A stretch of 64,000 nt of DNA from contig NZ_JBPPGJ010000003.1 of the NCBI RefSeq assembly GCF_051594765.1, forward strand, positions 264,226-328,225. Reading direction: 5' to 3'. The notes beneath the pieces were generated by a model. It saw only the letters and a program-made list of their open reading frames with translations, had not been told where the DNA came from and did no database searches. Within the stretch, counting starts at the first letter, position 1. Every line of letters starts with the position of its first letter. The stretch is from Gorillibacterium sp. sgz5001074 (GTDB lineage Bacteria > Bacillota > Bacilli > Paenibacillales > NBRC-103111). Shown piece by piece: positions 10,203 through 63,559 of the stretch. The position numbers were made by a program, and so were the translations under genes.

Positions 10203-10214
10203 GATCGTAAGCTA

Positions 10215-10799: not shown

Positions 10800-10819
10800 G
10801 GATTCAAACTCCTTTGGGA

Positions 10820-11671: not shown

Positions 11672-11688
11672 TTCCCCCGCCCTCCTTA

Positions 11689-11717: not shown

Positions 11718-11787
11718 TATACGGTAAAAACCATTGTCTGTCAATGGCCGAGGGCCACCCTTACCGGATGGCCCTTCTTCATCTATT

Positions 11788-12090: not shown

Positions 12091-12128
12091 AATGAACCTC
12101 TCCTTCACATGTCGATCGTCCCAATCCT

Positions 12129-30429: not shown

Positions 30430-30439
30430 AATAAACTCC

Positions 30440-30640
30440 TCCTTAGGGGTTGGATTGCACAAAAAAAAGAGATTGGATGTCTCCAATCTCAAGTCATAAG
30501 AATAACGAATAATAGTTGCCGCCCAGACGGAATACGACTGTACGACAAATACCATTCCATACTCTTCTGTCCTTTTGCCTGAGATAGTGAACCCTTCGGC
30601 GCCGTGGAAGTCCCACGGTCTCTCCAGAAGCTGCTCCTGC
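30440..30640 (-). ncRNA. glycine riboswitch (single aptamer) with intrinsic terminator/attenuator
   Basis: The minus-strand leader contains CUGGAGAG..GCGCCGAAGGG..CUCAGGCAAAAGGACAG, the signature of a glycine aptamer. A GAGAUUGGAG/CUCCAAUCUC hairpin plus U8 sits just before the RBS. Confidence 0.55.
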
Positions 30641-31443: not shown

Positions 31444-31451
31444 TAGCCGCC

Positions 31452-32609: not shown

Positions 32610-32663
32610 TCACTCGCCACAATGAATATTCTTTGAACTGCCCTTACTGCTATGTACTTTTAA

Positions 32664-33341: not shown

Positions 33342-33394
33342 TACCTCCGAGTTCGTTATATCCTATTATGGCAAAAACCGCGTGGCGGGCAGTT

Positions 33395-41882: not shown

Positions 41883-42435
41883 TTCTGCTAAGGGACTCCG
41901 GCGTAACCCCGAGATAGCTTGCCAACTGATTCTGGGGAACACGTTCGATAAGGCCAGGTCTTTTGTGCAGCAGAGATTTGAACCGTTCTTCGGGCGAAGA
42001 AGCAACGAAATCGGCGAAGTCCTCTTGTACACTCCCGAAGATCTCCACGGTCATTCGATTCGTCATCGTTTCTAATTGCGGGTATTTATGGAAGGTGTCG
42101 TTAATCGTTGCTAGGTCGCCGACAACCAATACACAATCCTCGAGACATGTCAGTGTATACCTAGATCCCTTGCTCTCCGAGTGCTCGTTATAGATGACGA
42201 CTGCTTGCTCTTCCGTGTAGAAATTGCTGGTGACCTCTCTTCCTAACGCATCTACAGCATACTGCCGAATACAGCCTTTCAGTATGAAATAACACATCGT
42301 GGGGACGTCCCCTTGCCATAGAAGAATCGTTCCCTTCTTATACTCATCCACTCGAATCTCACTTGCAATCATCCGTTGCTCTTCATCGCTAAACGAAGTG
42401 TATTTCGTCAAATATTTAAACAAAATGTCCTTCAC
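41857..42435 (-). CDS. Crp/Fnr family transcriptional regulator
   Basis: cNMP-binding domain plus a C-terminal HTH (QNQLASYLGVTPESLSRIKKRV). Confidence 0.8.
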   Translation of the reverse strand: MKDILFKYLTKYTSFSDEEQRMIASEIRVDEYKKGTILLWQGDVPTMCYFILKGCIRQYAVDALGREVTSNFYTEEQAVVIYNEHSESKGSRYTLTCLEDCVLVVGDLATINDTFHKYPQLETMTNRMTVEIFGSVQEDFADFVASSPEERFKSLLHKRPGLIERVPQNQLASYLGVTPESLSRIKKRVSRL

Positions 42436-42558
42436 CTTGCTTCCCTCCCTTCGAGTTGTGCACCGCGCCCTAAGATTATGGAAACCCTGCGCTTTTATGT
42501 AATACCGTATTCGTTTTTATTGGTATAGTAAGACTACGAAAGCGACTAAAGGGGATAT

Positions 42559-46651: not shown

Positions 46652-46817
46652 AGGGTTACCTTTCTTGGCAGCTAAAGTGATGACGATTATGGAGTGTATT
46701 GTAGAACATGAATGGCGAGTTTACCGTTTCTCAGCGTAACATCTTTATAGCGAAATTGAAAGGGATTCGATCGGATGCCTTTTGCAGAAACTTGTCTCTA
46801 TGCAATAGAAGGCTTAC

Positions 46818-47836: not shown

Positions 47837-48421
47837 TTGATCTTGGAAGAACTTTTGTTTCCATTTCCTAAGACGGCACTAATCGTCATCGACTTGCAAA
47901 AGTGGCTTGGATCCCAGTATGCCCCATATTCGTCGGAGCAAGTCGTCACCCGCGCCGCCTCTATGGTTCAAGCATTCCGTGAGGCAGGCGCATTCGTTGG
48001 ACTAGTTCGTGTATCCACGAAAGACTTCCAAGATATGCCTCGTCCGCTGCTGGATCAGCCCCCCCCAACCTTGAATCTGGTGCCTGGGTGGGATGAAATT
48101 GTACCCGAGATCGGAGTCACGGACACCGATCATGTCATTACCAAGCGCCAATGGGGAGCCTTTTACGGAACGGACTTGGATCTGCAGCTGCGCCGGCGGG
48201 GCATCACGACGATCGTGCTTTGCGGCATTGCTTCTGGTATCGGCGTAGATACCACTGCGCGTGAAGCCTTCGCCCATGGGTATCAGGTCATTTTTGCGAA
48301 AGATGCCATGACCGGCTTCAGCGAAGAGGAACATGAACACGTCATGAAGGTCATCTTCCCGCGTATTGGCAGAATCCGCTCGACCGAGGACATTCTTGCT
48401 TGCGCCGCGCTTCAATCTTAA
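47837..48421 (+). CDS. isochorismatase-family cysteine hydrolase
   Basis: Matches the family throughout, including the catalytic Cys in [12 protein letters not shown]. Confidence 0.75.
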
Positions 48422-48523: not shown

Positions 48524-50548
48524 GTGGAATATCATGTATCCATACAAGGGAATGATCAGGGGCAAGGAACCGCTGATCAGCCCTTTCGTACAATATCACG
48601 CGCTGCGGCTCTTGCCATGGCTGGTGATACGGTTATGGTTCATGCTGGAGTATACAGGGAATGGGTCAACCCGGCGAATGGGGGAACCGCGGAGCATAGA
48701 ATCGTATATCGATCTGCGGGAGACGGGGAAGTCGTCATTACAGGAGCGGAACGGATTGCCGACTGGAAGTCTGAAGGAAACAACGTTTGGAGCACAGAAG
48801 TATCCAATTCCATCTTTTCCGTTCGCAATCCCTTTGAAGTGGAGCTCAGTGGAGACTGGGTATTTGGCGGGCCCTTCCCGGTTCATCTCGGTGATGTCTA
48901 TTTGGATAACAAATCTCTGTATGAATGCGAGAGTGTCGAAAAGGTTCAGAAGCCCGAAGTTTGGCCCGAAGCCAAATATCCCGAGGACTCTCTGCTAAAA
49001 TGGTATGCCGAAGTTGGTGCCGCAACGACCAAAATCTGGGCCAATTTTGGTGGTAAAGATCCCCGTAAAGAAAATGTGGAAATTAATGTCCGCCCTTATT
49101 GCTTTTGGCCTGAGAAGCCGGGACTTAATTATATCACTGTAAGCGGCTTCACTCTTCGTCAAGCTTCTCCTCAGTGGGCACCGCCTACGGACTACCAGGA
49201 AGGATTGATCGGACCTCACTGGAGCAAGGGTTGGATTATTGAAAACAATGTGATTAGTGAATCCAGATGCGTTGGGATCAGCCTGGGTACCGAAATAGGT
49301 ACAGGTCACACCAAGTCCTCGGGCAAGCATATGAAAGGCGGTACTCAACGGGAGCAGGAGGTTATTTTACGAGCAATACGCTCCGGCTGGCATAAGGATA
49401 CCATCGGCAGTCACATCGTTCGAGGCAATGTGATTCATGACTGCGAACAGGCAGGGATTGTGGGTCATATGGGAGGGGCCTTCAGCCGCATTTATCAGAA
49501 CCGCATATATAATATTCACCACAAACGCTTGAGACACGGTGCTGAAGTAGCAGGAATCAAACTTCATGCTTCCCTGGATACTCAAATTAGCGAAAATAGA
49601 ATCTATAATTGTTATCGTGCTGTTTGGCTTGATTGGCAGGCGCAGGGCACCCGCATCAGCCGCAATGTATTTTTTGACAACCTTTCAGAAGACTTCTTCG
49701 TTGAGGTTTGCCATGGTCCGTATATGGTGGATCATAATTTGTTCCTCTCTCCGATGAACTTCAGAAATATGGCGCAGGGTGGAGCTTTTGCTCATAATTT
49801 GTTTGCCGGTAGATTTGTCGTTCGTTCGGAGATTACCCGTACTACGCCGTATCACTTCCCTCACGAGACGGCAATGGCCGGATACTCCAATATCACCGGA
49901 GGCGATGACCGGTACTACAACAATATCTTTTTGGGGGATCATGATGCTCATAAGGAACCTGTTCCCATAACCTTTTTTGAGCATCTTCCACTTAAACCAA
50001 GGGATGAAATTGGTGAGGACGGAAAGACCGTCATGGATGGGGTTCCGGACAATTCCATTTGCTATCTGCATGCTGTGGGACTGGGAGGCTACAACAAACA
50101 CCCTGATGCAAAAGATAAGAAATGGTGGGAATACACCCCTCAGGAGCTTGCTGAGCTTGGCGAGGCCGCAAAGGATTTCTTTATTGGAAATGCCGTTCTT
50201 CCGGTGGCTATGGGCGGAAACCTATATCTTAACCATGCGGTTCCAAGCAGTCATGAGCCCCATGCGAAGAGTTATGCGCAGAAGGGCATAGAAGTGGATA
50301 TTGATCCTGCACAAGGCAGGGTGCACATTCAGGTCCATGAGCCCGAACTGCTTCGGGGAGCCTCTGCCATGCTGGTTACCACCGATCTGCTTGGCAAGAC
50401 CTATCACGCCGAGATGAAATATGAGGAGCCGGACAGCAGTCCATATCGTTTTGACTCCGACTTTTTCGAAAAAAAGAGACCTGATGCAGATGTCACACCC
50501 GGTCCGTTTGAATGGGCCGAAAAGGGAACCATTGATTTCGATTTTTAG
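48524..50548 (+). CDS. right-handed parallel beta-helix repeat protein (pectate-lyase-superfamily fold), cytoplasmic
   Basis: GTG start after AAAGGAGG. Repeated NxIxxN/asparagine-ladder segments (ISENRIYNCY..ISRNVFFDN). No signal peptide. Confidence 0.7.
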   Translation: MEYHVSIQGNDQGQGTADQPFRTISRAAALAMAGDTVMVHAGVYREWVNPANGGTAEHRIVYRSAGDGEVVITGAERIADWKSEGNNVWSTEVSNSIFSVRNPFEVELSGDWVFGGPFPVHLGDVYLDNKSLYECESVEKVQKPEVWPEAKYPEDSLLKWYAEVGAATTKIWANFGGKDPRKENVEINVRPYCFWPEKPGLNYITVSGFTLRQASPQWAPPTDYQEGLIGPHWSKGWIIENNVISESRCVGISLGTEIGTGHTKSSGKHMKGGTQREQEVILRAIRSGWHKDTIGSHIVRGNVIHDCEQAGIVGHMGGAFSRIYQNRIYNIHHKRLRHGAEVAGIKLHASLDTQISENRIYNCYRAVWLDWQAQGTRISRNVFFDNLSEDFFVEVCHGPYMVDHNLFLSPMNFRNMAQGGAFAHNLFAGRFVVRSEITRTTPYHFPHETAMAGYSNITGGDDRYYNNIFLGDHDAHKEPVPITFFEHLPLKPRDEIGEDGKTVMDGVPDNSICYLHAVGLGGYNKHPDAKDKKWWEYTPQELAELGEAAKDFFIGNAVLPVAMGGNLYLNHAVPSSHEPHAKSYAQKGIEVDIDPAQGRVHIQVHEPELLRGASAMLVTTDLLGKTYHAEMKYEEPDSSPYRFDSDFFEKKRPDADVTPGPFEWAEKGTIDFDF

Positions 50549-50558
50549 TTTATTGTTG

Positions 50559-50595
50559 AGGATCCAGTCCTTTAAGGTGATTGGATCTTTTTTCG
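50559..50595 (+). terminator. rho-independent terminator
   Basis: GATCCAG..TTGGATC hairpin followed by TTTTTTCG, immediately after the stop at 50548. Confidence 0.55.
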
Positions 50596-50939
50596 TGTGT
50601 ACTGTTAGCGAAGTTTAGAAATGCTTGTCGAATGTTTTGCGCTGTACGAGTCCGGAATGGTCGAGGAGGCAGGCGAGGCCGATGTTCGCGCTCAATTTGA
50701 CGCCAACTTATTGTTCCTCCAAATGGGCGTTTATTTTGATGAACTCAGTATAAACATAGAGGCATCATGGCCCATAAATAGTTTTCTTCCAGTAAAAAAG
50801 ATCTTGGATTTTATGCGTCAATAGGTTGAATAAGAGCACTTGGGGCATGAAATATTTGACAAATGGGTGTCATCATATATAATTTTCTCAGCCAAATAAA
50901 TAGCATTGCATTTTAATCGAGAGAAATGAGGATAGTGAA

Positions 50940-51311
50940 ATGATGATCGTTCGTGACCTTTTAACGGCACTTGTTGCCATCGAGCATGTATATATCTTGA
51001 TTTTGGAAATGTTCATGTGGACAACTCCGAGAGCGAGGAAGGCTTTCGGAACCGAAATGAAATTCGCGGAAGCGACTAAGGCGCTTGCCGCTAACCAGGG
51101 TCTGTATAACGGCTTCTTGGCGGCGGGGCTGTTCTGGGGGCTCATTCATCCCGATGCCGCAATGGGGTACCAGCTGCAATTGTTCTTCCTAGGCTGCGTC
51201 CTCGTAGCCGCCGTCTACGGAGGCGTGACGGCGAAACGGTCGATTCTGCTCGTCCAAGGGCTGCCGGCATTAACTGCAATGGTCGCCGTGCTCGTATCGC
51301 GCTTTCTTTAA
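50940..51311 (+). CDS. DUF1304-family membrane protein
   Basis: 123 aa, 4 TM. Followed by a terminator at 51334-51356. Confidence 0.6.
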   Translation: MMIVRDLLTALVAIEHVYILILEMFMWTTPRARKAFGTEMKFAEATKALAANQGLYNGFLAAGLFWGLIHPDAAMGYQLQLFFLGCVLVAAVYGGVTAKRSILLVQGLPALTAMVAVLVSRFL

Positions 51312-51514
51312 CATCAAGCTTCTCAAGGAAAGAGGGCCGTACGGATGGCCGTTTTTACATACAAAGGACCGTTTTAGCATGGGGCGCAACTTTTCCAGCC
51401 ATATACCTTCTAAAGGGGAGTTATCCGATTCTCACTTTTATTTGGTATACACGAAATCCCCATAAGAGCAATGCCGATAAACGATTTCATGAAGTATCCG
51501 ATTATGAATTTATT

Positions 51515-51943
51515 GTGTTGAAGGAACGTTTTGGAGACCTCGTTCTTCCCATGGCGCTCGACTTAACGGATGCTGAGCAGGTACGCCAGGTCGTTCAGCA
51601 GGCTCATGCCCATTTCGGCAAGCTGGACGTTGTCCTCAACAATGCCGAACCCGGTGCTTATGTGACCGAGTTTGGCGCTTCAGGTAAGCGAGTACCGGAA
51701 ATGGACGTCTATACCGCTGTACGGAAGCAGGTATTCACACGTCTATCAAACGAAAAATGCGGCAACGCTCAAGCGACTGCAGAAGCCGTTCTCAAGATCG
51801 TGGACGCAGCGGAACCCCCACTACGATTTGCGCTCGGCTCGGAAATCTTGCCTATGGCACGCGGCACCTATGCTGACCGTCTCGCCACCTGGGAAGCCTG
51901 GGAGTCTGTCTCGAATGCAGCGCAAGGCAGTCCTATGCAATAA
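51515..51943 (+). pseudogene. SDR-family oxidoreductase fragment (N-terminal Rossmann segment missing)
   Basis: Starts in mid-domain (..LPMALDLTDAEQVRQVVQQAHAHFGKLDVVLNNA..) with no TGxxxGIG upstream. Confidence 0.55.
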
Positions 51944-52011
51944 GCCATTGCAATTGGACTGGAGCAGATAACCAGCAAGGAACCTCTTCGACTTTTTCGA
52001 AGAGGTTCCTT

Positions 52012-52830
52012 TCAAAACCTTCTCAACCATTCCAGCATTCGATCTACAACTTCCTTATATCGTTGTCCGACAAGCAGGCCGGTGTGGGTGGTGTGCCTAA
52101 GTCCAGCATATTCCGCATGGAGCTGTTCCGCTGTCAACCTGCCTCGACGGTCATCATCATCGTCATTAACAGCTTTGACAACCAAGCTTGGGCAAGTGAC
52201 CAAGCTGCCATTTATGGAGATTCCCTCTCCATCCTCAAATGCCAAAAACGCATTGAATGCCTTCGCCGACTCCATGGCTAGATACTTTTTTTGAAATGCG
52301 ATGTCTTCCGCCGATTCGTCTAAGCTTGTGTGTTCTTCTCTTACTGGGGCGGGAATGATAGGCCCCGATGTGAACAGGACAATATTTTCGTACGGTACTG
52401 CTTCATGCACTTCCTTGCTTATGCTGGAATCAATCACAACCAGACCTGCCAGGGAGACGGTTTCGGCCAGCTTCTGACACAGGATTCCGCCCATGCTGAA
52501 TCCGATCAGGATCGGCGGAACGCCGCATTCAACGATTACCTCCCGAATGTCCTCCAAGTAATCCTCGAAAGAAATCGTTGTCATATCCAACATCCTGCTT
52601 CTGTAGTGACTTCTCATGTTCATGACATAGCATTTCCATCCTTCATTCACAAAGTGGGGGATGTATTTGCTCCACATCCAACTTCCTGTGTAGGCACCGT
52701 GTACAAACAACAGCGGCGTTCTAGCCGCTGCACTCGAGAAGTTATCGTCACCATATACTTCTAAGAATAAATCGTGTTCTCCAACGTACTTCTCTGTATG
52801 AGGGGGCAACCATTTCGTGTAATCCTTCAT
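52012..52830 (-). CDS. alpha/beta hydrolase
   Basis: GFSMGG nucleophile elbow. Confidence 0.75.
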   Translation of the reverse strand: MKDYTKWLPPHTEKYVGEHDLFLEVYGDDNFSSAAARTPLLFVHGAYTGSWMWSKYIPHFVNEGWKCYVMNMRSHYRSRMLDMTTISFEDYLEDIREVIVECGVPPILIGFSMGGILCQKLAETVSLAGLVVIDSSISKEVHEAVPYENIVLFTSGPIIPAPVREEHTSLDESAEDIAFQKKYLAMESAKAFNAFLAFEDGEGISINGSLVTCPSLVVKAVNDDDDDRRGRLTAEQLHAEYAGLRHTTHTGLLVGQRYKEVVDRMLEWLRRF

Positions 52831-52887
52831 CTTTCATTCCTCCTGTAGGCATTATAGTTTGACATCAAACCTTCTAACCAAAAAAAA

Positions 52888-53361
52888 TTAAAAGTTGCGA
52901 TAGATTTTCAATAAAATTCTCAGTAGTTCTTCTTTCTCTTGGTCTGTGATTCCTGAGTAAAACGCGTTCAACATGTCGTTCGATATGGATTCAAATACAG
53001 GTCTCAATTCCAGTCCCTTCTGCGTTAAGGAAACGAAGACAACTCTTGAATCATCCGTGTGCCTTTCCTTGGTTACATACCCGAGCCGGACTAATTTGTC
53101 GACAAGCGCCGTAACCGTGGATTTATCCTTGCCGATCTTCCTGGCGATCTCCGCCATGGTCAGCCTGGTCTTCCCCAATAGTGCATAGATGATATCCCCA
53201 TGCGAGGTTGCAATACCATCCATGCTATGCTTCGCCATCTCGGCAATTATAAACCTGTTGGCCTTCTCTCTGATCTTAGCAATAAGTGAAACAGCGTCTC
53301 TGATCTCCATATTCGTATTATAGTTTTGCATCAAACTATTGTCAATGAATGGATGTAGCAA
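52888..53361 (-). CDS. MarR family transcriptional regulator
   Basis: Winged HTH (LTMAEIARKIGKDKSTVTALVDKLVRLGYV). The real start may be an internal Met. Confidence 0.75.
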   Translation of the reverse strand: MLHPFIDNSLMQNYNTNMEIRDAVSLIAKIREKANRFIIAEMAKHSMDGIATSHGDIIYALLGKTRLTMAEIARKIGKDKSTVTALVDKLVRLGYVTKERHTDDSRVVFVSLTQKGLELRPVFESISNDMLNAFYSGITDQEKEELLRILLKIYRNF

Positions 53362-53385
53362 TCAATAGCACACTCTGTCTTCTAA

Positions 53386-53471
53386 GGAACTTGCCGTTAC
53401 TTGTGATACGGATCGCCGCGCTGTCTATAACGGCAAGTTTTAGAGCCATCCTTCCGGGACGGCTCTTTTTT
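53386..53471. repeat. rlmH 3-prime-end copy 3 (GATCCGTATCACAAGTAA, minus strand) within a 12-bp inverted repeat (AACTTGCCGTTA..TAACGGCAAGTT), followed by a terminator-like hairpin
   Basis: Direct repeat of the C-terminal codons and stop of rlmH at 63080-63103. A region of about 45 nt is about 85% identical to the copy at 60751-60800. Confidence 0.7.
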
Positions 53472-53492: not shown

Positions 53493-54038
53493 TCAGTGCT
53501 TACAGAGTTTTTCATACACCTCATAAACTGCGAGCACCTGCTCCACAAAGCCTTTCTCGGCACTTTCAATCCATTTGATAAAAGCCATGTAAAAAATTTC
53601 AACCGCAAATCGTGCGGCAAGCTCTGACAGCTCGCGATCAAATTTGACAGACAATGCGTTTGTGACAGACCCCATTAGCGCCTGGCTTTTCAGCAGCTCA
53701 CGCTCCTGCAAATCAGGGTTGCTTTGAATAATTTGATTCCGCGCCAGCACCCTCTCCCGCTCGCCATCAAAAAAACTAAAAACCGAGGCAAAGCCATCAA
53801 CGGCAAGCTTCAGCGGATTTTGCTCGACGTCGATATGGTCCGTGATAAAAGCCGCGACTCGATGCCCCATCTCATTTCTCGTGTCAAAAAGCACGTCAGA
53901 TTTGTCCTTGAATTGCCGGAAAAAGGTTCTCTCCGTCACACCTACAAGGCTTGCAATCTCTTGCACCGTCGTATTTTCATAGCCTTTTTCCATAAATAAT
54001 TTCGTGGCCGCCGCCTGCAGTTTCTCTTTACTATTCAT
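53493..54038 (-). CDS. TetR/AcrR family transcriptional regulator
   Basis: TetR HTH (AATKLFMEKGYENTTVQEIASLVGVTERTFFRQF). Confidence 0.8.
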   Translation of the reverse strand: MNSKEKLQAAATKLFMEKGYENTTVQEIASLVGVTERTFFRQFKDKSDVLFDTRNEMGHRVAAFITDHIDVEQNPLKLAVDGFASVFSFFDGERERVLARNQIIQSNPDLQERELLKSQALMGSVTNALSVKFDRELSELAARFAVEIFYMAFIKWIESAEKGFVEQVLAVYEVYEKLCKH

Positions 54039-54186
54039 TTTACCATTCCTATTTTTATAATTTTTTACATTTTTACGAAAAGGTCAGTAACTGACATTTT
54101 ATCTTGACAACAGTATCCAGCAAGCGCATAATGATCTCAAATGTCAGTCACTGACATAACTTTATCAAAAAGAAGGAGAGAACACA

Positions 54187-55074
54187 ATGAAAATCACCGT
54201 TCTCGGCTCACTCGGCAATATCAATCGTAACTACCTTCCACGCCTCATCGCAGACGGTCACGATGTCACCGTCATCACAAGCTCCAAAGATCGGGTCTCC
54301 GACATCGAAGCTCTCGGCGCCAAGGCTGCTGTCGGCTCAAATCGTGATGTCGACTTCCTCACCAAGGCTTTCACAGGCAGCGACGTCGTTTACCTCATGA
54401 TTTCTGGCATCCATTTTGCCACTGGCACGGATATGTGGCAGACCGCCATCGAGCTTTCTGAAAATTACAAGACCGCCGTTCTAAACTCAGGCGTGAAAAA
54501 CGTCATCAACCTCAGCTCAGTGGGCGCTGACAACCCCAACGCCGGCATCCTTTACAGCTATCATTTTGCAGAAGACGCGCTCAACTCGCTCGAAGGCGTG
54601 AACGTTGTTCATATCCGCCCTGTCGGCTTTTACAGTAATCTTTTTGCCGACATGCAAAGCCTTAAAGCCCAGCGAATCCTCTTCAGTCCCATTTCAGCCG
54701 ACATCCCGCAAGGGTGGGTCAGCCCCGTTGATATCGCGGACGTCGCTTACGCTCTGATTTCTCACACCCCAGCGGGAAAAAGCACGAAATTCGTAGTAAG
54801 CGATTGGGCCACATGCAACGACTGGCTAAATGCTCTTGCTGAAAATGATATCGAAGCCAAGTTCCAAAAAATCCCCGTCGAAGCTCTCGCTGAAAATATG
54901 AAGAAAATCGGCTTCCATGAAAACACCGCCAACGGCTTCGCCCAATTGTACCGCGCGGGTGAAAACGCCGACGAATTCTACGCCAGCCTCCGTGCCACCG
55001 ACTACTACCTCGGCAAAGTCAAGATTGGAGACTTTGCAAAGGTTTTTGCGGATGTATATAAAAAATCAGTTTAA
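54187..55074 (+). CDS. NmrA-like NAD(P)-binding protein
   Basis: MKITVLGSLGNINRNYLPRLIADGHDVTVI Rossmann motif. Confidence 0.7.
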   Translation: MKITVLGSLGNINRNYLPRLIADGHDVTVITSSKDRVSDIEALGAKAAVGSNRDVDFLTKAFTGSDVVYLMISGIHFATGTDMWQTAIELSENYKTAVLNSGVKNVINLSSVGADNPNAGILYSYHFAEDALNSLEGVNVVHIRPVGFYSNLFADMQSLKAQRILFSPISADIPQGWVSPVDIADVAYALISHTPAGKSTKFVVSDWATCNDWLNALAENDIEAKFQKIPVEALAENMKKIGFHENTANGFAQLYRAGENADEFYASLRATDYYLGKVKIGDFAKVFADVYKKSV

Positions 55075-55154
55075 ACCATTTTGGATTACAAACCGTTCTT
55101 ATTACCTCCACAAAAACTAACAGAGCACCCGAATAGGTGCCCTTCCACGATTCA

Positions 55155-55730
55155 TTAGCTATGCGATTCGATTAATATCCTAGCAGCCTGTTCGATGTCA
55201 GCCGGCGGGGCATCGGGGCCGACCAACCGCGCGATCATACAGAATCCTTCCATCAAGACGAAGAGCTGTCGCGACAGTCCTTCGGGGGATCGCAAATTCG
55301 CTTGCCTGCATATGTCTTCCAAACGACGGATGACAGATTGCTTGTGTCGGCTTACTTCCTGATTCACCATATGGTCGGGGAACGGATACTCCACGGCGAC
55401 CGCTTGATACAGACAGAAGCTCGATTGCGGCGACTTCGAATGTTGGCCTGCAATCGCTTTAAACAATGCAAGAATCTGCTCCCGCGATTCGGCCTTACCT
55501 ACCGTCTTATCAAACCATTCCCAATACATCTCGCTGGAACGTTCCAGAATGGCAACAATTAAATGATCCTTGGACGGAAAGTGTTTGTATAAGGTCATCT
55601 TCGTAACACCAGCTTCGGCAGCGATGCGGTCGACACCGATTGCATGGAAGCCGTTAGTGAAAAACAACTGACTCCCGGTCAACAGCAATTGCTCCCTAGT
55701 GGCTGATTTCCGGTCATTCATAACACTCAT
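55155..55730 (-). CDS. TetR/AcrR family transcriptional regulator
   Basis: Start MSVMNDRKSATREQLL with an AGAGGTGA RBS. The upstream track extension is non-coding. Confidence 0.75.
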   Translation of the reverse strand: MSVMNDRKSATREQLLLTGSQLFFTNGFHAIGVDRIAAEAGVTKMTLYKHFPSKDHLIVAILERSSEMYWEWFDKTVGKAESREQILALFKAIAGQHSKSPQSSFCLYQAVAVEYPFPDHMVNQEVSRHKQSVIRRLEDICRQANLRSPEGLSRQLFVLMEGFCMIARLVGPDAPPADIEQAARILIESHS

Positions 55731-55747
55731 TTTAAAATCACCTCTAT

Positions 55748-55819
55748 ACTTGACAGTATACAGATCGGTATGTATACTGTCAATTAAAACCAGCGGTATA
55801 CAGACTTGTATGTATACTC
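55748..55819. promoter_or_regulatory. divergent TetR-controlled promoter: perfect 12-bp inverted repeat TTGACAGTATAC-(10)-GTATACTGTCAA overlapping a consensus sigma-A promoter, plus a second GTATAC-containing half-palindrome
   Basis: TTGACA at 55750-55755, a 17-nt spacer, then TATACT at 55773-55778. The inverted-repeat arms are 55750-55761 and 55772-55783. Confidence 0.6.
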
Positions 55820-55836
55820 TAAAAGGAGGAGAAGAA

Positions 55837-56484
55837 ATGAAGATCGGATTCATCGGTTCGGGCAACGTCGGGCAATCGTTGGGGCGCGTATTGGTTCAAC
55901 AGGGGTATGATGTGAAGCTTGGCGCGAGGGACTTGAGTAAGTTGAGGATCTGGCAAGAATCGTTCGGGGCTAATGAAAGGGCGAGCGTTGGCACCTACCG
56001 GGAAGCAGCCGAACATGGCGAGATTATCTTCAACGTTACGCCTGGCGCCGTATCGCTCGAAGCCTTGCAGTCGGTAGGTCGGGTAGCGCTTGCCGGCAAA
56101 ATTCTTATCGATGTTGCGCTTCCACTCGTATTCGCGAATGGCGAGCTGGGATTGTCAGTCCCCCACAACGACTCGCTCGGAGAACAGATCCAACGCGCCT
56201 TCCCAGATACGAAAGTCGTCAAAACGCTTAATACCGTAACGTCTGCCCTTATGATCCATCCGTACCAGCTTGCAGAGGGCCAGCACGATATGTTTATCGG
56301 GGGTAATGATGTAGACGCAAAAAAACAGGTCTCAGAGTACCTGCGCAAATGGTTCGGTTGGAAGAACATTCTGGATCTAGGCGACATCTCATCTGCACGC
56401 GCAACAGAGGGCCTTCTCCTGCTTACCTCCAGAATATATGGCGCCCTCGGTCATGCGAACTTTAATCTGAAAATCATTCACTAA
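55837..56484 (+). CDS. NADP-binding oxidoreductase (F420-dependent NADP reductase / ProC-like Rossmann family)
   Basis: MKIGFIGSGNVGQSLG start after an AAAAGGAGGAG RBS. Confidence 0.65.
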   Translation: MKIGFIGSGNVGQSLGRVLVQQGYDVKLGARDLSKLRIWQESFGANERASVGTYREAAEHGEIIFNVTPGAVSLEALQSVGRVALAGKILIDVALPLVFANGELGLSVPHNDSLGEQIQRAFPDTKVVKTLNTVTSALMIHPYQLAEGQHDMFIGGNDVDAKKQVSEYLRKWFGWKNILDLGDISSARATEGLLLLTSRIYGALGHANFNLKIIH

Positions 56485-56491
56485 AACAGAC

Positions 56492-57952
56492 ATGACTAAC
56501 AGGAAGGACTCACCCTCCTCATCGGTCCGCCATCTCGCCGTGCCGATGGCCGCGATCATTGTCGGGATGTTTATCGTCTATTTGGATCAGACGGTTTTGA
56601 ATGTGATTTTGCCAAATATAATTACATCACTTCATAGCACATACCCTGCAGCGCAATGGACGATTACCGGATACTCGCTCGCTATGGCGTCCCTCATACC
56701 CATTGCGGGCTGGCTCTCCGACCGGTTCGGCGCCAAGCCGGTCCTGCTCATGGCGATTGCTTGGTTTGGGGCGGCTTCTGCTCTTTGCGCGCTGTCTTCC
56801 ACGATGGAACAACTGATCTTGTTCCGCTCCGTTCAGGGCATTAGCGGAGGTCTGGTGACGCCAGTAGGGCTTGCGATGATCTATCGTCTGAGCCCCTCAG
56901 GGCAGACCGGCAAGGTCATGGCGATGATCAGCATTCCGGTTCTGCTAGCCCCCGCTTTCGGTCCAATTCTAGCCGGTTACCTTGCCGACCATTTATCCTG
57001 GCACTGGGTGTTCCTGATCAACGTTCCGCTCTGTCTCATCGGCCTCCTTCACGGTATTCGCTATCTTCCGCGGATTACCAGCGGGCCCACAGCAAGATTG
57101 GACCCTTATGGATTATTCCTCGCCCCCGTTGCAGTTGTTGGGCTTTGTTACGGGCTTAGCGCAGGCACCAGTAGTTGGCATTCCACACAGACAATCGGCA
57201 GTTTTTTGACGGGATTCATCAGTCTCATTCTATTGATCGTCGCTGAATTACGGCAACCGGAACCGTTGTTGGAACTTCGCGTCTACCGTTCCCGTGGTTT
57301 TGCCAAAGGCAGCTTTATACTGGCAGCGGGGCAAATCGCTGTTTTCGGAAGCCTTTATTTGTTGCCGCAATGGCTGCAGAACGTAAGAGGTAGCGGCGCA
57401 TTCGAGTCCGGACTGCTCATGCTACCGTATGCGGTATCGTCGGGTATTGTCTTACAATGGTCGGGCAAATGGTTCGACAGATTCGGAGTTCGGAGATTAG
57501 CGATAGCCGGAATGTGCGGCCTGGGGATTGACGGATTTTTGCTGGCTCGCCTCGAACCGAATAGCAGTACGCTTTGGATCGTTCTGCCGATCGTCTTGCT
57601 TGGCGCGAGCTCGGGTCTATGCATGATGCCACTGAGTACACATCTCATGCTAATGGCCCCACGGGAGCTGGTCAGCCGAGTATCCTCGCTAGCCGGCGCC
57701 TCCCAACAGGTCATTGTGTCTTTAACCATCGCCGGGCTGACAACCTTATTGACTGGATATATGGGGTCGCCTGTGAGTAGACCTCCCCCTCTCGTTCAAG
57801 ACTGGCTGCCAGCGTTTCGTATAACTTTTGCAACAACTTCAATTACTGCCCTTCTCGGCGCAACGATCGTAATATTCATAAAAAACGATTATAGTTTACG
57901 AAATAGGAATGGTGATTTGATTTCTAAAGAAAAAAAGAGAAGCCCGGATTAA
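56492..57952 (+). CDS. MFS transporter, DHA2 (EmrB/QacA-like, 14 TM) drug:H+ antiporter family
   Basis: 486 aa with motif A-like regions (LDQTVLNVILPNI.., GWLSDRFGAKPVLL). Confidence 0.75.
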   Translation: MTNRKDSPSSSVRHLAVPMAAIIVGMFIVYLDQTVLNVILPNIITSLHSTYPAAQWTITGYSLAMASLIPIAGWLSDRFGAKPVLLMAIAWFGAASALCALSSTMEQLILFRSVQGISGGLVTPVGLAMIYRLSPSGQTGKVMAMISIPVLLAPAFGPILAGYLADHLSWHWVFLINVPLCLIGLLHGIRYLPRITSGPTARLDPYGLFLAPVAVVGLCYGLSAGTSSWHSTQTIGSFLTGFISLILLIVAELRQPEPLLELRVYRSRGFAKGSFILAAGQIAVFGSLYLLPQWLQNVRGSGAFESGLLMLPYAVSSGIVLQWSGKWFDRFGVRRLAIAGMCGLGIDGFLLARLEPNSSTLWIVLPIVLLGASSGLCMMPLSTHLMLMAPRELVSRVSSLAGASQQVIVSLTIAGLTTLLTGYMGSPVSRPPPLVQDWLPAFRITFATTSITALLGATIVIFIKNDYSLRNRNGDLISKEKKRSPD

Positions 57953-58213
57953 TCAAGGACCGGCCGTTCTTCGCACAGAAGTCCGCCCTAACCACATGGG
58001 ATGGGTGGCCGACATTGATCGCTTGCGGGTTATGTGAATACAAAAAGAGAGGACCTTCCCGGTACGGTTCTCCGTATCACTCTAACGGCGAAAAATAAGC
58101 CATTGGATTTCGGTTCTCCTAGCTATCGGTAATGAAAGTTTTAAGGCCATCCTTAATCTCCCGCATCTATGAAGAAAAGACAGGGCGGTCGCCCCTGTCT
58201 TTCTTTACGTTAA

Positions 58214-59002
58214 CTAAATTTTCCCATTATATATTTTAACTGTAATTGGAGCGACAATCAGAACAAGGAGTATGCCGATAAAGATGGTCATTGATGCGCT
58301 TGAAGTGAACTCTCCATGATTGGCTAAATCTTTAAAAGCCGTGACCAAATAAGTAATAGGATTATGTTCAGCTACGCTCCGCAAAAAATGGGGCAACGTA
58401 TCAATAGGCACGAAGGCGTTGGATAGGAACGACATCATCATGGTGACCATTGTCGAAATACTAGAGATCGTTGCTGCGGATTTGGATACCAGACCAATCA
58501 ATGCAAACACCCAACTGATGGCGCATGCGCCGAATATGGCCAAAAGCGAAGCGACGATCAACCACCCAAACCCGGCTTCCGGACGCCATCCAAGAATGTA
58601 GCCCGTACCGATCGAGAAAAAAGCCGCCGCGACATATCGTAAAATATCTGATGTCACTAAACCAGCCAGTGGAGCAATCCGGACAATGGGTAATGATTTA
58701 AACCGATCAAAAACGCCAGTATCCAAATCCTCCCGTAACTGCGTGCCCGTTGCCGCTGACGACATGACCAGTGTTTGAATGAGAATTCCCGGCACGATGA
58801 TTGGCAAGTATCCTTGTACACCTCCAGCAATCGCACCTCCGAATAGATATGAAAAGACGATCATGAAGAAAATAGGGATTACGGTTACATCGATCAATTT
58901 ATCGGGATTATGTTTGATTTTCAGGATATTTCTTTTTGCCATTACAACAATATCATACAGAGCGCTCTTTAAGTTGTTTTGTTTGCTTATCACAGATTCC
59001 AT
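58214..59002 (-). CDS. ABC-2 type transporter permease (DrrB-like)
   Basis: 262 aa, 6 TM. Confidence 0.7.
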   Translation of the reverse strand: MESVISKQNNLKSALYDIVVMAKRNILKIKHNPDKLIDVTVIPIFFMIVFSYLFGGAIAGGVQGYLPIIVPGILIQTLVMSSAATGTQLREDLDTGVFDRFKSLPIVRIAPLAGLVTSDILRYVAAAFFSIGTGYILGWRPEAGFGWLIVASLLAIFGACAISWVFALIGLVSKSAATISSISTMVTMMMSFLSNAFVPIDTLPHFLRSVAEHNPITYLVTAFKDLANHGEFTSSASMTIFIGILLVLIVAPITVKIYNGKI

Positions 59003-59017
59003 GTTTATCTCCCCTAA

Positions 59018-59947
59018 TTATTTAGTTAGTTCCAAAAACACCTCATCAAGCGTTGGTTTTCTAACTGAAAACTCTTTGATTTCTATATCATGCTGAGTTA
59101 AATCTACTAGTAATCTGGTCATCACTTTCGTGTCTGCCAGCTTAACGGTCAATTTGGTTCCTTCGGGTGAAATCATGGCCTCCTGAGCGATTTCCGCCTT
59201 GATTAGTCCTTTGGCTCTTTCGGCATCCCTCATATGCTCCAGAGTAATTTCAAAATGGGTATCGCTTAACAAAGACTTCAATTCATTCGGCGTTCCCTGA
59301 GAAATGATTCTTCCATGATTAATTATCGCTAGTCGATCTGCTAGTTGATCCGCTTCCTCCAAATACTGAGTTGTCAGCAAGATCGTTGCCCCGTCGCTTG
59401 CCAAGTTGCGGATCACTTCCCACATCTCTCCTCGTGTGCGTGGATCTAAGCCCGTTGTCGGTTCATCAAGAAAAATGAGTGGGGGCTTCACGATTAAACT
59501 CACCGATAAATCCAATCGTCTACGCATCCCGCCCGAAAATTCACGAATCGGTCGATCCTTTGCCTCGGTTAATGAAAACTGATTGAGAAGTTCAAGAGCC
59601 CTCGCTTTGGATTGACTCGCTGATAAACCATTCAATTGCCCAAAGAGCTTCAAGTTTTCCATCGCGGTCAATTCCTCATCAACGGTTGCATATTGGCCCG
59701 TCAAGCCAATCAAGCTTCGAACCTTTCGAGCGTCTTTGGTGACGTCTTTGCCAAAAATCATGGCTTTGCCTTTTGACACTTTAGTAATCGTTGCAAGCAT
59801 TCGCAAGAAAGTTGTCTTTCCTGCACCATTCGGACCCAGAATACCGAAAATCTCTCCTTTCTTAATATCCAAAGAAATACCATCGACTGCTCGCTTGTTA
59901 GGAAATTCTTTAACGAGCTCTTTAGTTGAAACGGCTAGCTCTGTCAT
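59018..59947 (-). CDS. ABC transporter ATP-binding protein (DrrA-like)
   Basis: Walker A (GPNGAGKTT) and signature (FSGGMRRRL). Start at MTELAVS. Confidence 0.8.
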   Translation of the reverse strand: MTELAVSTKELVKEFPNKRAVDGISLDIKKGEIFGILGPNGAGKTTFLRMLATITKVSKGKAMIFGKDVTKDARKVRSLIGLTGQYATVDEELTAMENLKLFGQLNGLSASQSKARALELLNQFSLTEAKDRPIREFSGGMRRRLDLSVSLIVKPPLIFLDEPTTGLDPRTRGEMWEVIRNLASDGATILLTTQYLEEADQLADRLAIINHGRIISQGTPNELKSLLSDTHFEITLEHMRDAERAKGLIKAEIAQEAMISPEGTKLTVKLADTKVMTRLLVDLTQHDIEIKEFSVRKPTLDEVFLELTK

Positions 59948-59971
59948 TCTGTTTTCTCCTTTGCGCATTTA

Positions 59972-60012
59972 ATAAGGATACCTTACTAATAAAATAAGGT
60001 ACCCTTACTAAA
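59972..60012. promoter_or_regulatory. two direct copies of a palindromic box (TAAGGATACCTTACTA / TAAGGTACCCTTACTA); putative MarR operator
   Basis: Each copy contains TAAGG..CCTTA inverted half-sites. Located 25 nt upstream of the ABC ATPase start and 80 nt upstream of marR. Confidence 0.5.
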
Positions 60013-60091
60013 ATGTCAACCACATAATTTGAATTACTTCGGTGACCTGATAAAATAGAGAGGTACGGAGAACAAATAAGGGGAAATTATT

Positions 60092-60553
60092 GTGGATGAA
60101 AAACAATTAAACGTCGATATAACGACTAACTTCATGAAATATAATGATTTACTTACGGCGTTCTTAAAAGAAAACATACTTAAAGGCAGCAGCGTGTTTA
60201 CCTCTCTAAATCGAGGGCAAGGGAAAATATTGAGCATCCTTCATCAGACACCAAGTATTTCCCAAAAGGAATTAGTCAATCAATTGGATATGCGCCCGCA
60301 ATCTGCTTCTGAAATGATTAAAAAGCTAGAAAAAAAGGGATTCATCGAGCGGTATAAATCTGAAGAGGATCAACGCGTGATGATGATTACGCTAACTAAA
60401 GCCGGCAAAGTCGTTTTAAATCAAGCCGGAGACTTTCAGCCTGTATTTTTAAATGTTCTAACGATGGATGAAAAACAACAATTTAATCGAATACTCGAAA
60501 AACTTGTAGCCGAAATTGAACCCGAAGTCGCCAAATCTCGAAACAAGCAATAG
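60092..60553 (+). CDS. MarR family transcriptional regulator (low GC)
   Basis: Winged HTH (SISQKELVNQLDMRPQSASEMIKKLEKKGFI). Confidence 0.8.
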   Translation: MDEKQLNVDITTNFMKYNDLLTAFLKENILKGSSVFTSLNRGQGKILSILHQTPSISQKELVNQLDMRPQSASEMIKKLEKKGFIERYKSEEDQRVMMITLTKAGKVVLNQAGDFQPVFLNVLTMDEKQQFNRILEKLVAEIEPEVAKSRNKQ

Positions 60554-60750
60554 GGGCGTTATATCTAGATGCCGAAGGGGCGGGTTACCAGCTTCACGCC
60601 TGAATTTCCGGAGAAGGTCGGTTGCAAAAATCAAAGGGAGCCGTCCCAAATTCGATGATTTGGGAACGGCTCCCTTTACGGTTTGCCTCACTTTTCGCTT
60701 GCTATTCATTTTTTTGGGACATTCCAACGTATTGCAGCGAGCAAATTCGC

Positions 60751-60800
60751 CCTACTTATGATACGGTTCTCCGCGTTATCTGTAACGGCAAGTTTTAGGG
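60751..60800. repeat. rlmH 3-prime-end copy 2 (GAACCGTATCATAAGTAG identical to the native gene end; encodes RGEPYHK-stop) plus flanking element-end homology (..GTAACGGCAAGTTTTAGGGCC)
   Basis: 20 of 20 nt identical to 63081-63100. The flank is about 85% identical to 53415-53447. Confidence 0.7.
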
Positions 60801-60961
60801 CCAGTTTTGCAGGATGGAGAATTTCCGGTGTAAATCAATTAGTTTTTTTCCGAAGCTCTTCTCCCAAACAGCTCGATGCTTCTTCATCAACTCCATAAGA
60901 TATAAATCATGGACGTTTACTTCTGTAACCCTCCCTTGGAGTTAAATACTATCGCAGATAA

Positions 60962-61012
60962 AAAAAAGAATGCCGTGCATTTCCTGCACAACATTACGGC
61001 ATTCTCCCCAAT
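60962..61012 (-). terminator. rho-independent terminator of the helicase gene
   Basis: 10-bp stem (AGAATGCCGT/ACGGCATTCT) followed by T8 on the minus strand. Confidence 0.65.
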
Positions 61013-61075
61013 CGGTATGTTTACAGCTCGGCCAACGGCGAAGGTTTACTGCGCCAATGGTATGCAGCTAGCATT

Positions 61076-62524
61076 CTATCTCTTGTTCGCCGGCTGTACC
61101 TTCAGTAATTTACCCTTAACTGTGGTCTCCCGCATGGTGTTAAGCACCAGCCGGCCTTTGCCGTTCAGAATATCGACGTACGAAGCATTGTCCTCTATGG
61201 TGATGATGCCAATGTCATCTGCCGTTACACCTTCGATCTTCGCAATCGTTCCCACAAAGTCAACGGCCCTGATCTTCTTCTTCTTGCCCCCGTTAAAATA
61301 CAGCTTCATAATCTCATTACCCATGACGCTGTTCTTATCGGTCTTGGGAGTGGGCCGAGCCTTCATCTTCTTCTCGAAAGCATACTGGGCCTGCTCCGCC
61401 TCTTCCTTCGAAGGAGCACTCTTCCTTGGAATTTCATGCCCTATATAGCCCTCAATACTGATAACAAACTTCTCCTCATTCGGAGTGGCGAAGGAGATTG
61501 CCTTCCCCGTCTTCCCCGCGCGGCCGGTTCGGCCGGTTCGATGCACATAGCTCTCATTCTCTAACGGAAGATCATAATTGAAGACATGAGTGATATTATC
61601 GATGTCAATGCCCCTCGCGGCTACATCCGTTGCGATCAGATAACGGAACTCGCCCCTCTTGAAGGCATTCATCACCTCGTTCCGGTTGTCCTGCTCCATC
61701 CCGCCGTGGATGCCGTCACAGCTGTACCCATGCTTGTTCAACTCCTTGAACACCACCTCTACCCGGACTTGCGTACGGCAGAAGATGATGCAGCTGTCCG
61801 GGTTCTCAACCGTCGTTACATCCCGGAGCAGCTTGAGCTTATGCTCGTCCTTCACGGTATACAAGGCATGTTCAATTTGACTCTTCGTTCTTCCCGCGGT
61901 CTCGATCTCAATATCCATTGGCTGCTTCATATACCGGTGGCATAAGCTTTCTACATCCTTGGGCAAGGTTGCAGAGAACAGCAGGGTCATCCGGTGCTTG
62001 GGCAGCTCCCGAATAATCTTCTCCACCTGCTCAATAAAGCCCATGCTGAGCATCTCATCCGCTTCATCAATAACCAGGATCTTCACTTGCTCCAAGTCGA
62101 TCGTTTGCTTCTCGATGTGGTCCATCACCCGTCCCGGCGTACCGACGACAACATGATTTTTATACGTCAACTGATCTTTCTGCCTCTCGAAAGGCTGCTT
62201 CCCATAAATCGCGATTGCCTTGATCCGCTTGTACTTCCCAATATTCATGATATCCTGCTTGACTTGGTCCGCCAGCTCCCGGGTCGGGGTTAAGATCAAG
62301 GCCTGAGGCCGGTTCTCTTCCCAGTCCACCATTTCACAGACCGGAATCCCGTAAGCAGCCGTCTTGCCGCTACCCGTATGGGATTTGACCGCCATATCCC
62401 TATTCTCCAGCGCGTGAGGGATGACTTTACTTTGAACCTCTGTCGGTTGCTCGTAGCCCAAGCTCTCCAACGCCCGGATTATGGGGTCACTTAATTTATA
62501 GCTCGTAAAGCCTCGTTCACTCAT
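61076..62524 (-). CDS. DEAD-box ATP-dependent RNA helicase with C-terminal DbpA-type RNA-binding domain
   Basis: Q motif, Walker A ([12 protein letters not shown]), DEAD (VIDEADEM), SAT, and [20 protein letters not shown]. Confidence 0.85.
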
Positions 62525-62654
62525 ATAAGAACTCCTTCGTAATATCCTAGGTTATGTCGTCCACCCCTGCACTGCGTTTGTTTGCAATCATTTAGAATCA
62601 GGAAGATGACTCCTCATGATACGATAATTCCGATCGATAATCTAGCTTACTCTA

Positions 62655-63108
62655 ATGATCATCATCCCAGCTAATGAACACGCAGCAGATCAAGAGCATC
62701 ACGGTTGGTTGGACAGCTCTCACGGATTTTTCCGCCGTTTGGTCATCGTTCCGTTTCGTCGGGTGTTCAAGGGAGTGGAGGCCACAAAATGCTGCTGGAG
62801 AAGCTTTTGGAAGAACTGCCGGGCATCTTCAACTTTGCGATTGAAGGGCTTCGCCGCTTGAGAGAGCGAGACTACATCTTCTCCGAGTCCAAGGCAATCG
62901 AACAAGCGATCAACAGCTACAAGTCAGAGCAAAACCCGGTCATTTCATTCGTTGCCGACTTCGTCGAGAAGGAAATGAAAGCGACAGGGTTTGGACAAAC
63001 GAACTGTTCGACCACTTTCAAACTTGGTACAGACAGCAAGGCGAAACGGACTGCTGCGCGTTTTCACAAAAACATGCCCCTACTTATGATACGGTTCCCC
63101 CCGGTTGA
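62655..63108 (+). pseudogene. remnant of a phage/plasmid P4-family primase-helicase (C-terminal D5/primase-C region), N-terminally truncated, at least 2 frameshifts
   Basis: Frame a reads ..FRRLVIVPFRRVF. Frame b reads LLEKLLEELPGIFNFAIEGLRRLRERDYIFSESKAIEQAINSYKSEQNPVISFVADFVE. Frame c reads ELFDHFQTWYRQQGE. Together these match the conserved C-terminal pattern of P4-type primases. It ends exactly at the rlmH att core. Confidence 0.55.
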
Positions 63109-63559
63109 TCTTAAACGCCCGGTACACCTGCTCCACCAGGATCAGCCGCATGAGCTGATGCGGGAAGGTCATGCGCCCGAAGCAGAGCTTGGCGTCGGCG
63201 CGCTTGAGCACGGACGGGGCCAGGCCATTGGAGCCGCCGATGACGAAGGCCACGCTGGAGCGGCCGTACGTGCCGAGGCGGTCCAGCTGGGACGCCAGCT
63301 CCTCGGACGTCCACATGGCCCCGTCCAGCGCCAGCGCGATGACGTAAGCGTCCGGCTTCAGCTGGGCCAGGATCCGCTCGCCCTCCTTGGCCTTCACCTG
63401 CTCCTCCTCCGCCGCGCTCATGGTCTCGGGAGCCTTCTCATCCGGGACTTCGTTCAGCTGCACCTTCGCATAAGGCCCCAGCCGCTTCACATATTCGGCA
63501 ATGCCGTCCAACAGGTACTTCTCCTTCAGCTTACCGACCGCTACGATCTGGATATGCAT
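63080..63559 (-). CDS. rlmH: 23S rRNA (pseudouridine1915-N3)-methyltransferase RlmH
   Basis: The 159-aa SPOUT-family protein [82 protein letters not shown]. The track ORF start at 63691 is an upstream junk extension. Confidence 0.85.

Follow-up and report, generated by a model that had tools for sequence, protein, structure and literature searches.

In staphylococci, tandem cassettes that lack ccr but are flanked by att sites are cut out as circles by Ccr recombinases (PMC11470126). Recombinase islands inserted in rlmH are found in Bacillota, including a composite of Paenibacillus pinistramenti with several rlmH-end repeats (PMC10061031), and the Enterococcus cassette chromosome is a further example at this gene (PMC6222049). 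Here we describe a 7.3-kb segment with eight genes that lies behind rlmH in Gorillibacterium sp. sgz5001074 (Bacillota; Paenibacillales), in a 64,000-nucleotide stretch of contig NZ_JBPPGJ010000003.1 (assembly GCF_051594765.1, positions 264,226 to 328,225), which we call the window and whose own numbering is used throughout. We consider it likely that this segment represents the fused remains of probably three rlmH-end cassettes without a recombinase, within a cassette array behind rlmH. Elements of this kind, rlmH cassettes, are already known.

The rlmH gene for the 23S rRNA methyltransferase occupies 63080-63559 on the minus strand (NCBIfam NF000985, 246 bits against a cutoff of 172), and its final 18 nt, GAACCGTATCATAAGTAG (63080-63097, minus), form the first copy of an attachment-site core. 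An identical copy (0 mismatches) lies at 60752-60769 (minus), followed distally by GGCGAATTTG (60742-60751), and a third, GATCCGTATCACAAGTAA, with 3 mismatches, at 53397-53414 (minus). Copies 2 and 3 are oriented as the rlmH end itself and lie 7355 bp apart from start to start, and all three mismatches of copy 3 keep the reading D/E-P-Y-H-K-stop. As the chance expectation for such core matches was 0.03, and three copies were found in 0 of 100 shuffles, the rlmH-end copies that the preliminary description had placed at the borders of the segment are real. Allowing up to 5 mismatches, we found no full core in the window besides these three. Scored with an attachment-site profile built from 72 extra copies of other genomes (control: ~750 kb upstream of rlmH, maximum 8.9 bits), the three sites reached 25, 44-57 and 34-54 bits, respectively. 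By both profile and sequence, copies 2 and 3 share an end motif of the type that we call alpha, at 60770-60796 (minus) for copy 2 and as AAAACTTGCCGTTATAGACAGCGCGGC at 53415-53441 (minus) for copy 3. The distal boundary as a whole (53386-53470, minus) thus comprises a hairpin (~53445-53467), the alpha end, core copy 3 and a right arm, CGGCAAGTTCC (53386-53396), which is an inverted repeat of the left arm. Bracketed by the inverted-repeat arms AAAACTTGCCGTTA and TAACGGCAAGTT, the region of copy 3 forms a strong dyad with a fold z-score of -6.6. An Rfam scan of the 7.3-kb segment gave no match.

Besides the three known sites, the profile scan of the window revealed a fourth, at 58061-58098 (20.4 bits, E 1.6e-5), inside the segment. 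It belongs to an attachment-site scar at 58061-58152 (minus) that consists of a complete beta/gamma-type end, TTTTTCGCCGTTAGAGTGATACGGA (58071-58095), a core cut after ten bases, GAACCGTACC (58061-58070), followed by GGGAAGG, and, on the other side, an alpha-like part with a decayed core at 58099-58116. The scar sits in the 260-bp gap between the stop codons of the ABC permease gene (drrB) and the gene for the MFS exporter, exactly at a break in GC content: the MarR-DrrAB part has 42.6% GC (GC at third codon positions, GC3, 0.38-0.46), the MFS part 51.6% (GC3 0.57-0.59) and the TetR-NmrA part 47.5%, in agreement with the mosaic of AT-rich marR-drrAB and GC-rich MFS DNA reported before. We considered whether the truncated core is merely the 3' arm of the MFS terminator, and the homologous module of another genome (L090) does carry a terminator at this place; the 25-nt end motif upstream, however, belongs to no terminator and matches the cassette-end profile. 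A second inner boundary is probable downstream of the second TetR gene, where a hairpin, GGGCACCTATTCGGGTGCTC (55122-55143, minus), matches the conserved hairpin of gamma-type ends (six aligned). This hairpin is not significant by the attachment-site profile. Its counterpart in L081 is still trailed by a recognisable gamma motif, whereas in the window motif and core have decayed; this is probably where the MFS and NmrA cassettes once met. On this sequence evidence the segment appears to combine two and probably three formerly separate cassettes: MarR-DrrAB, TetR-oxidoreductase-MFS and TetR-NmrA. Cassettes welded at decayed attachment sites would explain the GC mosaic, and the segment offers a worked example of how attachment-site decay can weld separate cassettes into one apparent island.

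For comparison we used rlmH and its 10-kb flanks from the 80 most closely related species of the genome collection, in which the best rlmH identity was 86%; labels such as L001 denote these and other fetched comparison stretches, L003 being from Paenibacillus sp. YN15, L091 from Paenibacillus cellulosilyticus and L074 from P. ihumii. Exact look-ups with RlmH, the MFS exporter (also in its annotated form) and the permease gave no match, and the presence/absence comparison suggested in the preliminary description is therefore one between species: downstream of rlmH in the 80 related species the block is absent, and none of its eight genes was found there except one TetR in L074. The block is therefore not universally conserved at this position, as far as different species can show. 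The modules do recur in other genomes, with higher identity than rlmH shows. The marR-drrAB module (2.34 kb, 58215-60552) has 87-89.5% nucleotide identity to DNA of Paenibacillus azoreducens, Paenibacillus sp. CP150303 and several metagenome contigs, and other Paenibacillus species have proteins that match its permease with 90-97% identity, rlmH being at most 86% identical to that of any relative. In three stretches (L087-L089) the marR stop is ~280 bp away from an rlmH-end copy that is oriented as in the window, and in L082 two rlmH-end copies lie 8 kb from the module. The TetR-oxidoreductase-MFS module has a counterpart of 91% nucleotide identity in L090 and one of 77% in L081; the latter stands directly after the last rlmH-end copy and 4.6 kb from an rlmH that is itself only 70% identical in nucleotides. 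Both in the window and in L081, the MFS stop is ~85-110 bp away from an attachment site, and the TetR gene is followed by an end relic. A homolog of the TetR that is paired with NmrA lies 35 bp from an attachment site in P. cellulosilyticus (82% nucleotide identity) and adjoins one in P. ihumii (75% amino acid identity). A 284-aa neighbour of the P. ihumii homolog was considered as an NmrA homolog and rejected, as it is not NmrA. A search of the plasmid database PLSDB gave no match covering a whole module or most of either segment part.

An intact element of the related kind is present in the close relative L003, with the same alpha type of end as in the window. From rlmH outwards it comprises the core, a 565-aa protein with Resolvase, Recombinase and Zn-ribbon domains, a 673-aa D5_N/DUF5906 helicase, cargo and, 9 kb away, the alpha end; Pfam shows paired recombinases of the same type in L033 and L070. 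The recombinases of these three loci gave no match in the window by tblastn. Directly next to rlmH, however, lies a 2.3-kb cassette, which we call cassette A (60770-63079, minus) and which contains a fragment of the helicase, a DEAD-box gene and, closing it, the alpha end that precedes core copy 2. The fragment (62674-63093, plus; tblastn with the L003 helicase, 53-78% identity) is frameshifted and corresponds to residues 345-516 of the 673 of that D5_N/DUF5906 primase-helicase. Because only this frameshifted piece remains in the cassette, we take cassette A to be a decayed element that formerly bore a recombinase and has since been gutted. Its other gene product is a DbpA-type DEAD-box RNA helicase (61076-62524, minus; Pfam), and three further species (L043, L059 and L060) encode homologs of this protein (67% and 41%) close behind rlmH.

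We infer the recombination mechanism, the order of events and any mobilisation in trans from these observations, and a consistent course would be the following. Ccr-type large serine recombinases would insert circular elements at the last rlmH codons in Paenibacillaceae, each element bringing its own mimic of these codons, so that the target would be regenerated by every insertion and cassettes would stack head to tail between rlmH-end copies. Probably three such cassettes would have come to lie here in the order, from the rlmH side, of marR and drrAB; TetR, NADP oxidoreductase and DHA2 MFS; and TetR with the NmrA-like reductase. None of them encodes a recombinase, and the inner attachment sites between them have been truncated or have decayed. 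With intact sites at 63080, 60752 and 53397, the block would be excisable only as one 7.3-kb unit, alone or with its 2.3-kb neighbour, and only if a compatible serine recombinase were supplied in trans.

Several observations weigh against this account. A Resolvase-type open reading frame is absent from all frames of the 64-kb window and, as weak negative evidence, the best 120 relatives of the L003 recombinase include no Gorillibacterium protein; present-day mobility is therefore unsupported. A metagenome scan gave 0 matches to an empty site or an alternative junction at the distal flank, and no excised-circle sequence was found for the 7.3-kb block. At the inner sites, the degenerate alpha-like end of the scar (58111-58152, minus) reaches a marginal 8 bits, and the boundary at ~55100 is graded as probable because it is placed by a hairpin resemblance while the rest has decayed in the window. 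The function of the pumps is predicted from their families. Further points concern the history of single modules and are those that speak for a recombination-tolerant hotspot behind rlmH, into which modules came by homologous recombination, insertion sequence (IS) activity or other routes and in which unrelated elements left the rlmH-end copies as scars. The homology of marR-drrAB to its relatives ends at gene ends, not at attachment sites; in one genome (L084-L086) there are no attachment sites near this module, and in L087 it adjoins an IS4-type transposase. The marR-drrAB module also moves, or persists, by other routes. Moreover, with respect to its attachment site, the TetR-NmrA module has one orientation in the window and the opposite one in L074 and L091. 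On the other hand, all three modules lie beside rlmH-end copies in independent genomes, and the TetR-oxidoreductase-MFS module has a site close to its MFS stop and, past TetR, an end relic in the window and L081 alike, and we regard a hotspot of this sort as distinctly improbable.

That the 7.3 kb arrived as a single cassette, its GC mosaic having arisen by cargo assembly in an earlier host, would agree with its being bounded by only two intact attachment-site copies and now excisable only as a whole. The truncated attachment site and complete end motif at 58061-58098, inside the segment and at the GC break, argue against a single arrival, as does the finding that in other genomes each of the three modules stands apart from the other two. 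Assembly in a previous host is still compatible with present evidence, and we consider a single arrival unlikely rather than implausible. A further proposal is ordinary, vertically inherited chromosome: no recombinase gene is in the vicinity, regulators and transporters such as these are common and housekeeping-like, and the repeats could be coincidental or structural, for example terminators. The statistics of the repeats, the absence of the block in 80 relatives, its deviation in GC from the surroundings and the higher identity of DrrB across genera than of rlmH all contradict this, and we give it hardly any credence.

The eight genes were assigned with Pfam and NCBIfam, which agree at the family level with the list given in the preliminary description. 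At the distal end, a TetR gene (53493-54038, minus) is divergent from one for an NmrA-like NAD(P)-binding protein (54187-55074, plus). The second TetR gene (55155-55730, minus; TetR_N 52.8 bits, 84% amino acid identity to the L081 ortholog) is divergent from an operon (55834-57952) of an F420_oxidored-family NADP oxidoreductase (55834-56484, plus) and a DHA2 MFS exporter (56492-57952, plus; TIGR00711, 309.6 bits against a cutoff of 230.2). For the oxidoreductase only the broad PF03807 passes, and an identity as NADPH-dependent F420 reductase (NpdG) was rejected (TIGR01915, 52.2 bits, cutoff 149.8). The exporter is 100% identical to a protein recorded for Gorillibacterium sp. sgz5001074. A crude hydropathy scan of it shows 12 clear peaks, which is compatible with 14 spans and is not a rigorous count. 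On the rlmH side, an ABC-2 permease (58214-59002, minus; ABC2_membrane 94.5 bits) and a DrrA-subfamily ATPase (59018-59968, minus, with the true start likely at 59947; TIGR01188 351.1 bits against 312.45, DrrA C-terminal PF13732 43 bits) are divergent from a MarR gene (60092-60553, plus; Pfam MarR 68 bits). The permease does not qualify as DrrB proper (TIGR00025 88.3 bits against 146.9; TIGR01247 53.6 against 223). Models of specific resistance pumps (LmrB, Tet, QacA/B, FexA, Otr(C) and others in NCBIfam) all score far under their cutoffs, the best being LmrB with 160 against 800 and Otr(C) with 200 against 750. The earlier interpretation as resistance or detoxification cargo is therefore left unproven as regards resistance: the label is a guess from the families, as only family-level assignments pass, and the segment is not evidence for a new resistance gene. 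The likely role of the modules, predicted from their families, is to export or reduce small molecules that are hydrophobic or toxic.

Each module appears to be a self-contained sensor-effector unit, in which the promoter of an exporter or reductase is overlaid by palindromes where a ligand-responsive repressor would act. Between the second TetR gene and the oxidoreductase-MFS operon, two putative TetR operators of the form GTATACA-N8-TGTATAC lie at 55747-55819. The first (55747-55786) has 16-nt arms that are 94% complementary and contains TTGACA-17-TATACT on both strands, the two mirrored promoters being predicted to serve the divergent TetR gene and the operon; the second copy is at ~55797-55818. 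Both are essentially invariant in L081 and L090, even though identity over the whole L081 module is only 77%. At drrAB, two predicted MarR boxes (TAAGG-N3-CCTTA), TAAGGATACCTTA at 59973-59985 and TAAGGTACCCTTA at 59995-60007, overlap the promoter TTGACA-17-TATTTT (minus; -35 at 60014-60019, -10 at 59991-59996; 59973-60019 for boxes and -35 together). Of these boxes, one falls within the promoter spacer and the second immediately past the -10, a classical arrangement for repression, and boxes and -35 are invariant or nearly so across five homologous modules. A third operator pair, which is absent from the earlier list of sites, consists of GTCAGTNACTGAC palindromes at 54083-54095 and 54143-54155 that flank the candidate NmrA promoter TTGACA-17-CATAAT. 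Promoter-like sites as such are not above chance in the region (13 against 10.2 expected), and what carries the argument is where they lie and how well they are conserved, rather than how many there are. The palindromes described before, a TetR operator over a consensus promoter and MarR boxes, are thus real, and their conservation in diverged homologs lends support to the suggested intact regulation and to working repressor-controlled units. The practical value is modest: the segment provides three compact units of repressor, operator and effector with conserved operators that can be tested for inducers and substrates.

The rlmH-end copies are part of a pattern that extends across Paenibacillaceae. 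A codon-degenerate form of the core has 70 extra copies within 666 kb downstream of rlmH, distributed over 47 of the 80 loci, in comparison with 0 copies in 735 kb upstream, 0 on the opposite strand and a chance expectation of 0.004. The distance between copies in the related genomes has a median of 3.3 kb. Conserved element ends ahead of the cores fall into three types, alpha AAAACTTGCCGTTACAGACAGCGCGGA, beta TTTTCGCCGATAGACCCGTTAAGCT and gamma ATTTCGCTCTATAGATGATACGGT, frequently with a hairpin ahead of the end motif, and past the core follows an inverted repeat of the motif (AAAACTTGCCG...CGGCAAGTTTT, or TTTCGCC...GGCGAAA, the right-hand form being CGGCAAGTTTT or GGCGAAAAATT). End motif, core and inverted repeat together have the anatomy expected of attachment sites of large serine recombinases. 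In exact form the alpha motif was found in 28 stretches of metagenome DNA, in 15 with an intact core and in the others with decayed or truncated cores. In most of these 28 (L092-L119), a hairpin, GGGCCATCCC-loop-GGATGGCCC, stands directly before AAAACTTGCCG, as it does in the window at 53445-53467 and 58136-58152; the sequence itself is conserved beyond mere pairing, and candidate roles are a terminator or a part of the recombination site. Between rlmH-end copies of other species, 150 open reading frames match 137 Pfam families, the commonest being ABC ATPases (5), TetR (5), MFS (4) and two-component systems (4), and the regulator and transporter cargo of the window segment is typical for such arrays. 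A different kind of element at the same target is seen in 7 of the 80 species (L007, L010, L053, L056, L062, L066 and L080; ~9900-12160), where rlmH terminates in ...CATCGCTAA rather than in the usual core and a convergent gene for a 589-747-aa large serine recombinase overlaps its 3' end. In the literature searched we found no systematic account of the frequency and small size of such cassettes in Paenibacillaceae, an absence that counts as weak evidence.

Other parts of the window carry related traces. Cassette-end relics lie far from rlmH at 5087-5134 and 46731-46759 (both minus); they comprise an alpha-type end with decayed core (TACAGACAGCGCGAT GAACCTTACCCTAAATTT) of 21 bits and a gamma-type end without core of 13 bits, against a control maximum of 6-9 bits, and suggest that the array formerly reached more than 58 kb from rlmH. 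In L001, whose rlmH is 86% identical, orthologs (86-93% amino acid identity) of the genes at 41169-42441 and 47837-48418 of the window are found in reversed order between rlmH-end copies (17115-20463 of L001), less than 10 kb from rlmH. At 42.5 kb and 48.4 kb, where the window has the junctions that match L001 attachment sites, no site is present, and the comparison points to reshuffling of cassettes or to large insertions in the window. In the metagenome contig L111, which has four rlmH-end cores, positions 10294-12318, 3.4 kb past the last core, correspond with 84% nucleotide identity to 48525-50549 of the window and the gene of a 674-aa beta-helix protein. The following window genes at 50549-53396, for another MarR, an alpha/beta hydrolase and an SDR fragment, are not shared with L111 and may be a further cassette with no detectable distal site. 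In base composition, rlmH has a GC3 of 0.89 and all other sizeable open reading frames of the window have 0.34-0.71; either rlmH is an outlier, or accessory DNA makes up most of the window. We also noted a glycine riboswitch (RF00504, 51.9 bits; 30557-30637, minus) directly upstream of an amino-acid permease gene (29065-30555), and a block of low GC (0.35-0.43) at 30760-34036, with four minus-strand genes including one for an SPFH/Band-7 protein with zinc ribbons, which looks like a separate foreign insertion.

A broader reading, which we put forward tentatively as a real possibility short of probable, is that Paenibacillaceae keep an integron-like platform behind rlmH, with dozens of short (0.4-9 kb), mostly recombinase-less cassettes that a few recombinase-bearing elements capture, reshuffle and exchange between species in trans, while old ones decay in place. 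Each cassette may end in a conserved module of ~70 nt, of few types, composed of a hairpin, a 25-nt motif and the rlmH-end mimic. If this is true, much of the 63 kb behind rlmH could be a fossil array, as is hinted at by the relics at 46.7 kb and 5.1 kb and by the orthologs of the 41-48 kb genes that lie, reordered, between sites in a close relative. The segment and its relatives indicate that gene acquisition in the style of the staphylococcal cassette chromosome (SCC), at a self-regenerating serine-recombinase target in rlmH, operates in like manner in soil Paenibacillaceae, where it is common (47 of the 80 species sampled), and the array phenomenon across the family is a more interesting lead than the segment itself.

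The ccr-less cassettes of staphylococci are among the closest described counterparts. Measured against SCC in the IWG-SCC sense, the locus shows integration at the 3' end of rlmH (orfX), with all cores in the orientation of rlmH, and 18-nt direct repeats containing the integration site together with terminal inverted repeats; a ccr gene complex is lacking in the 64 kb. As the window has no Ccr-like recombinase, the analogy is with ccr-less pseudo-SCC cassettes and not with SCC proper, and as a ccr-less tandem array the locus qualifies with decayed inner sites. The description of the block as SCC-like cargo thus holds insofar as this is accessory DNA in an rlmH-end array; it does not hold for a single segment, given the scar at 58061-58152, or for SCC in the strict sense. 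Shared with pseudo-SCC of Staphylococcus are the last rlmH codons as site, direct repeats that restore rlmH, head-to-tail stacking, the lack of an own recombinase and self-regulated cargo. The staphylococcal tandem cassettes are mobilised by CcrAB/CcrC (PMC11470126) and differ from those here in host, a soil Paenibacillaceae in our case, and in that the present array has the core GAACCGTATCATAAGTAG, small cassettes (family median 3.3 kb), three differing end types, decayed inner sites, no mec or known resistance gene and no recombinase in the 64 kb.

With the rlmH recombinase islands of Bacillota (PMC10061031; PMC6222049) the locus has in common the target gene, the class of recombinase and tandem composites with more than one rlmH-end repeat, and the COG3378/D5-type helicase that stands beside the recombinase there is found in this position in L003. 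Those islands centre on recombinase and replication genes, whereas the window retains a helicase fragment only and the segment is pure cargo. The cargo itself resembles DrrAB and EmrB-QacA (DHA2) pumps, as the DrrA and DHA2 models pass and the layout of divergent repressor, operator and pump is classical; in contrast to these pumps, the permease is under the DrrB cutoffs, no specific resistance model passes and the co-transcribed F420_oxidored-family reductase is foreign to classical pump operons. To integron arrays there is a resemblance only, in the short promoter-poor or self-contained cassettes at one site, the imperfect-palindrome ends and the older cassettes farther out. Unlike in integrons, the site has no resident integrase or Pc promoter, the chemistry would be that of a serine and not a tyrosine recombinase, and the cassettes come with their own promoters and regulators.

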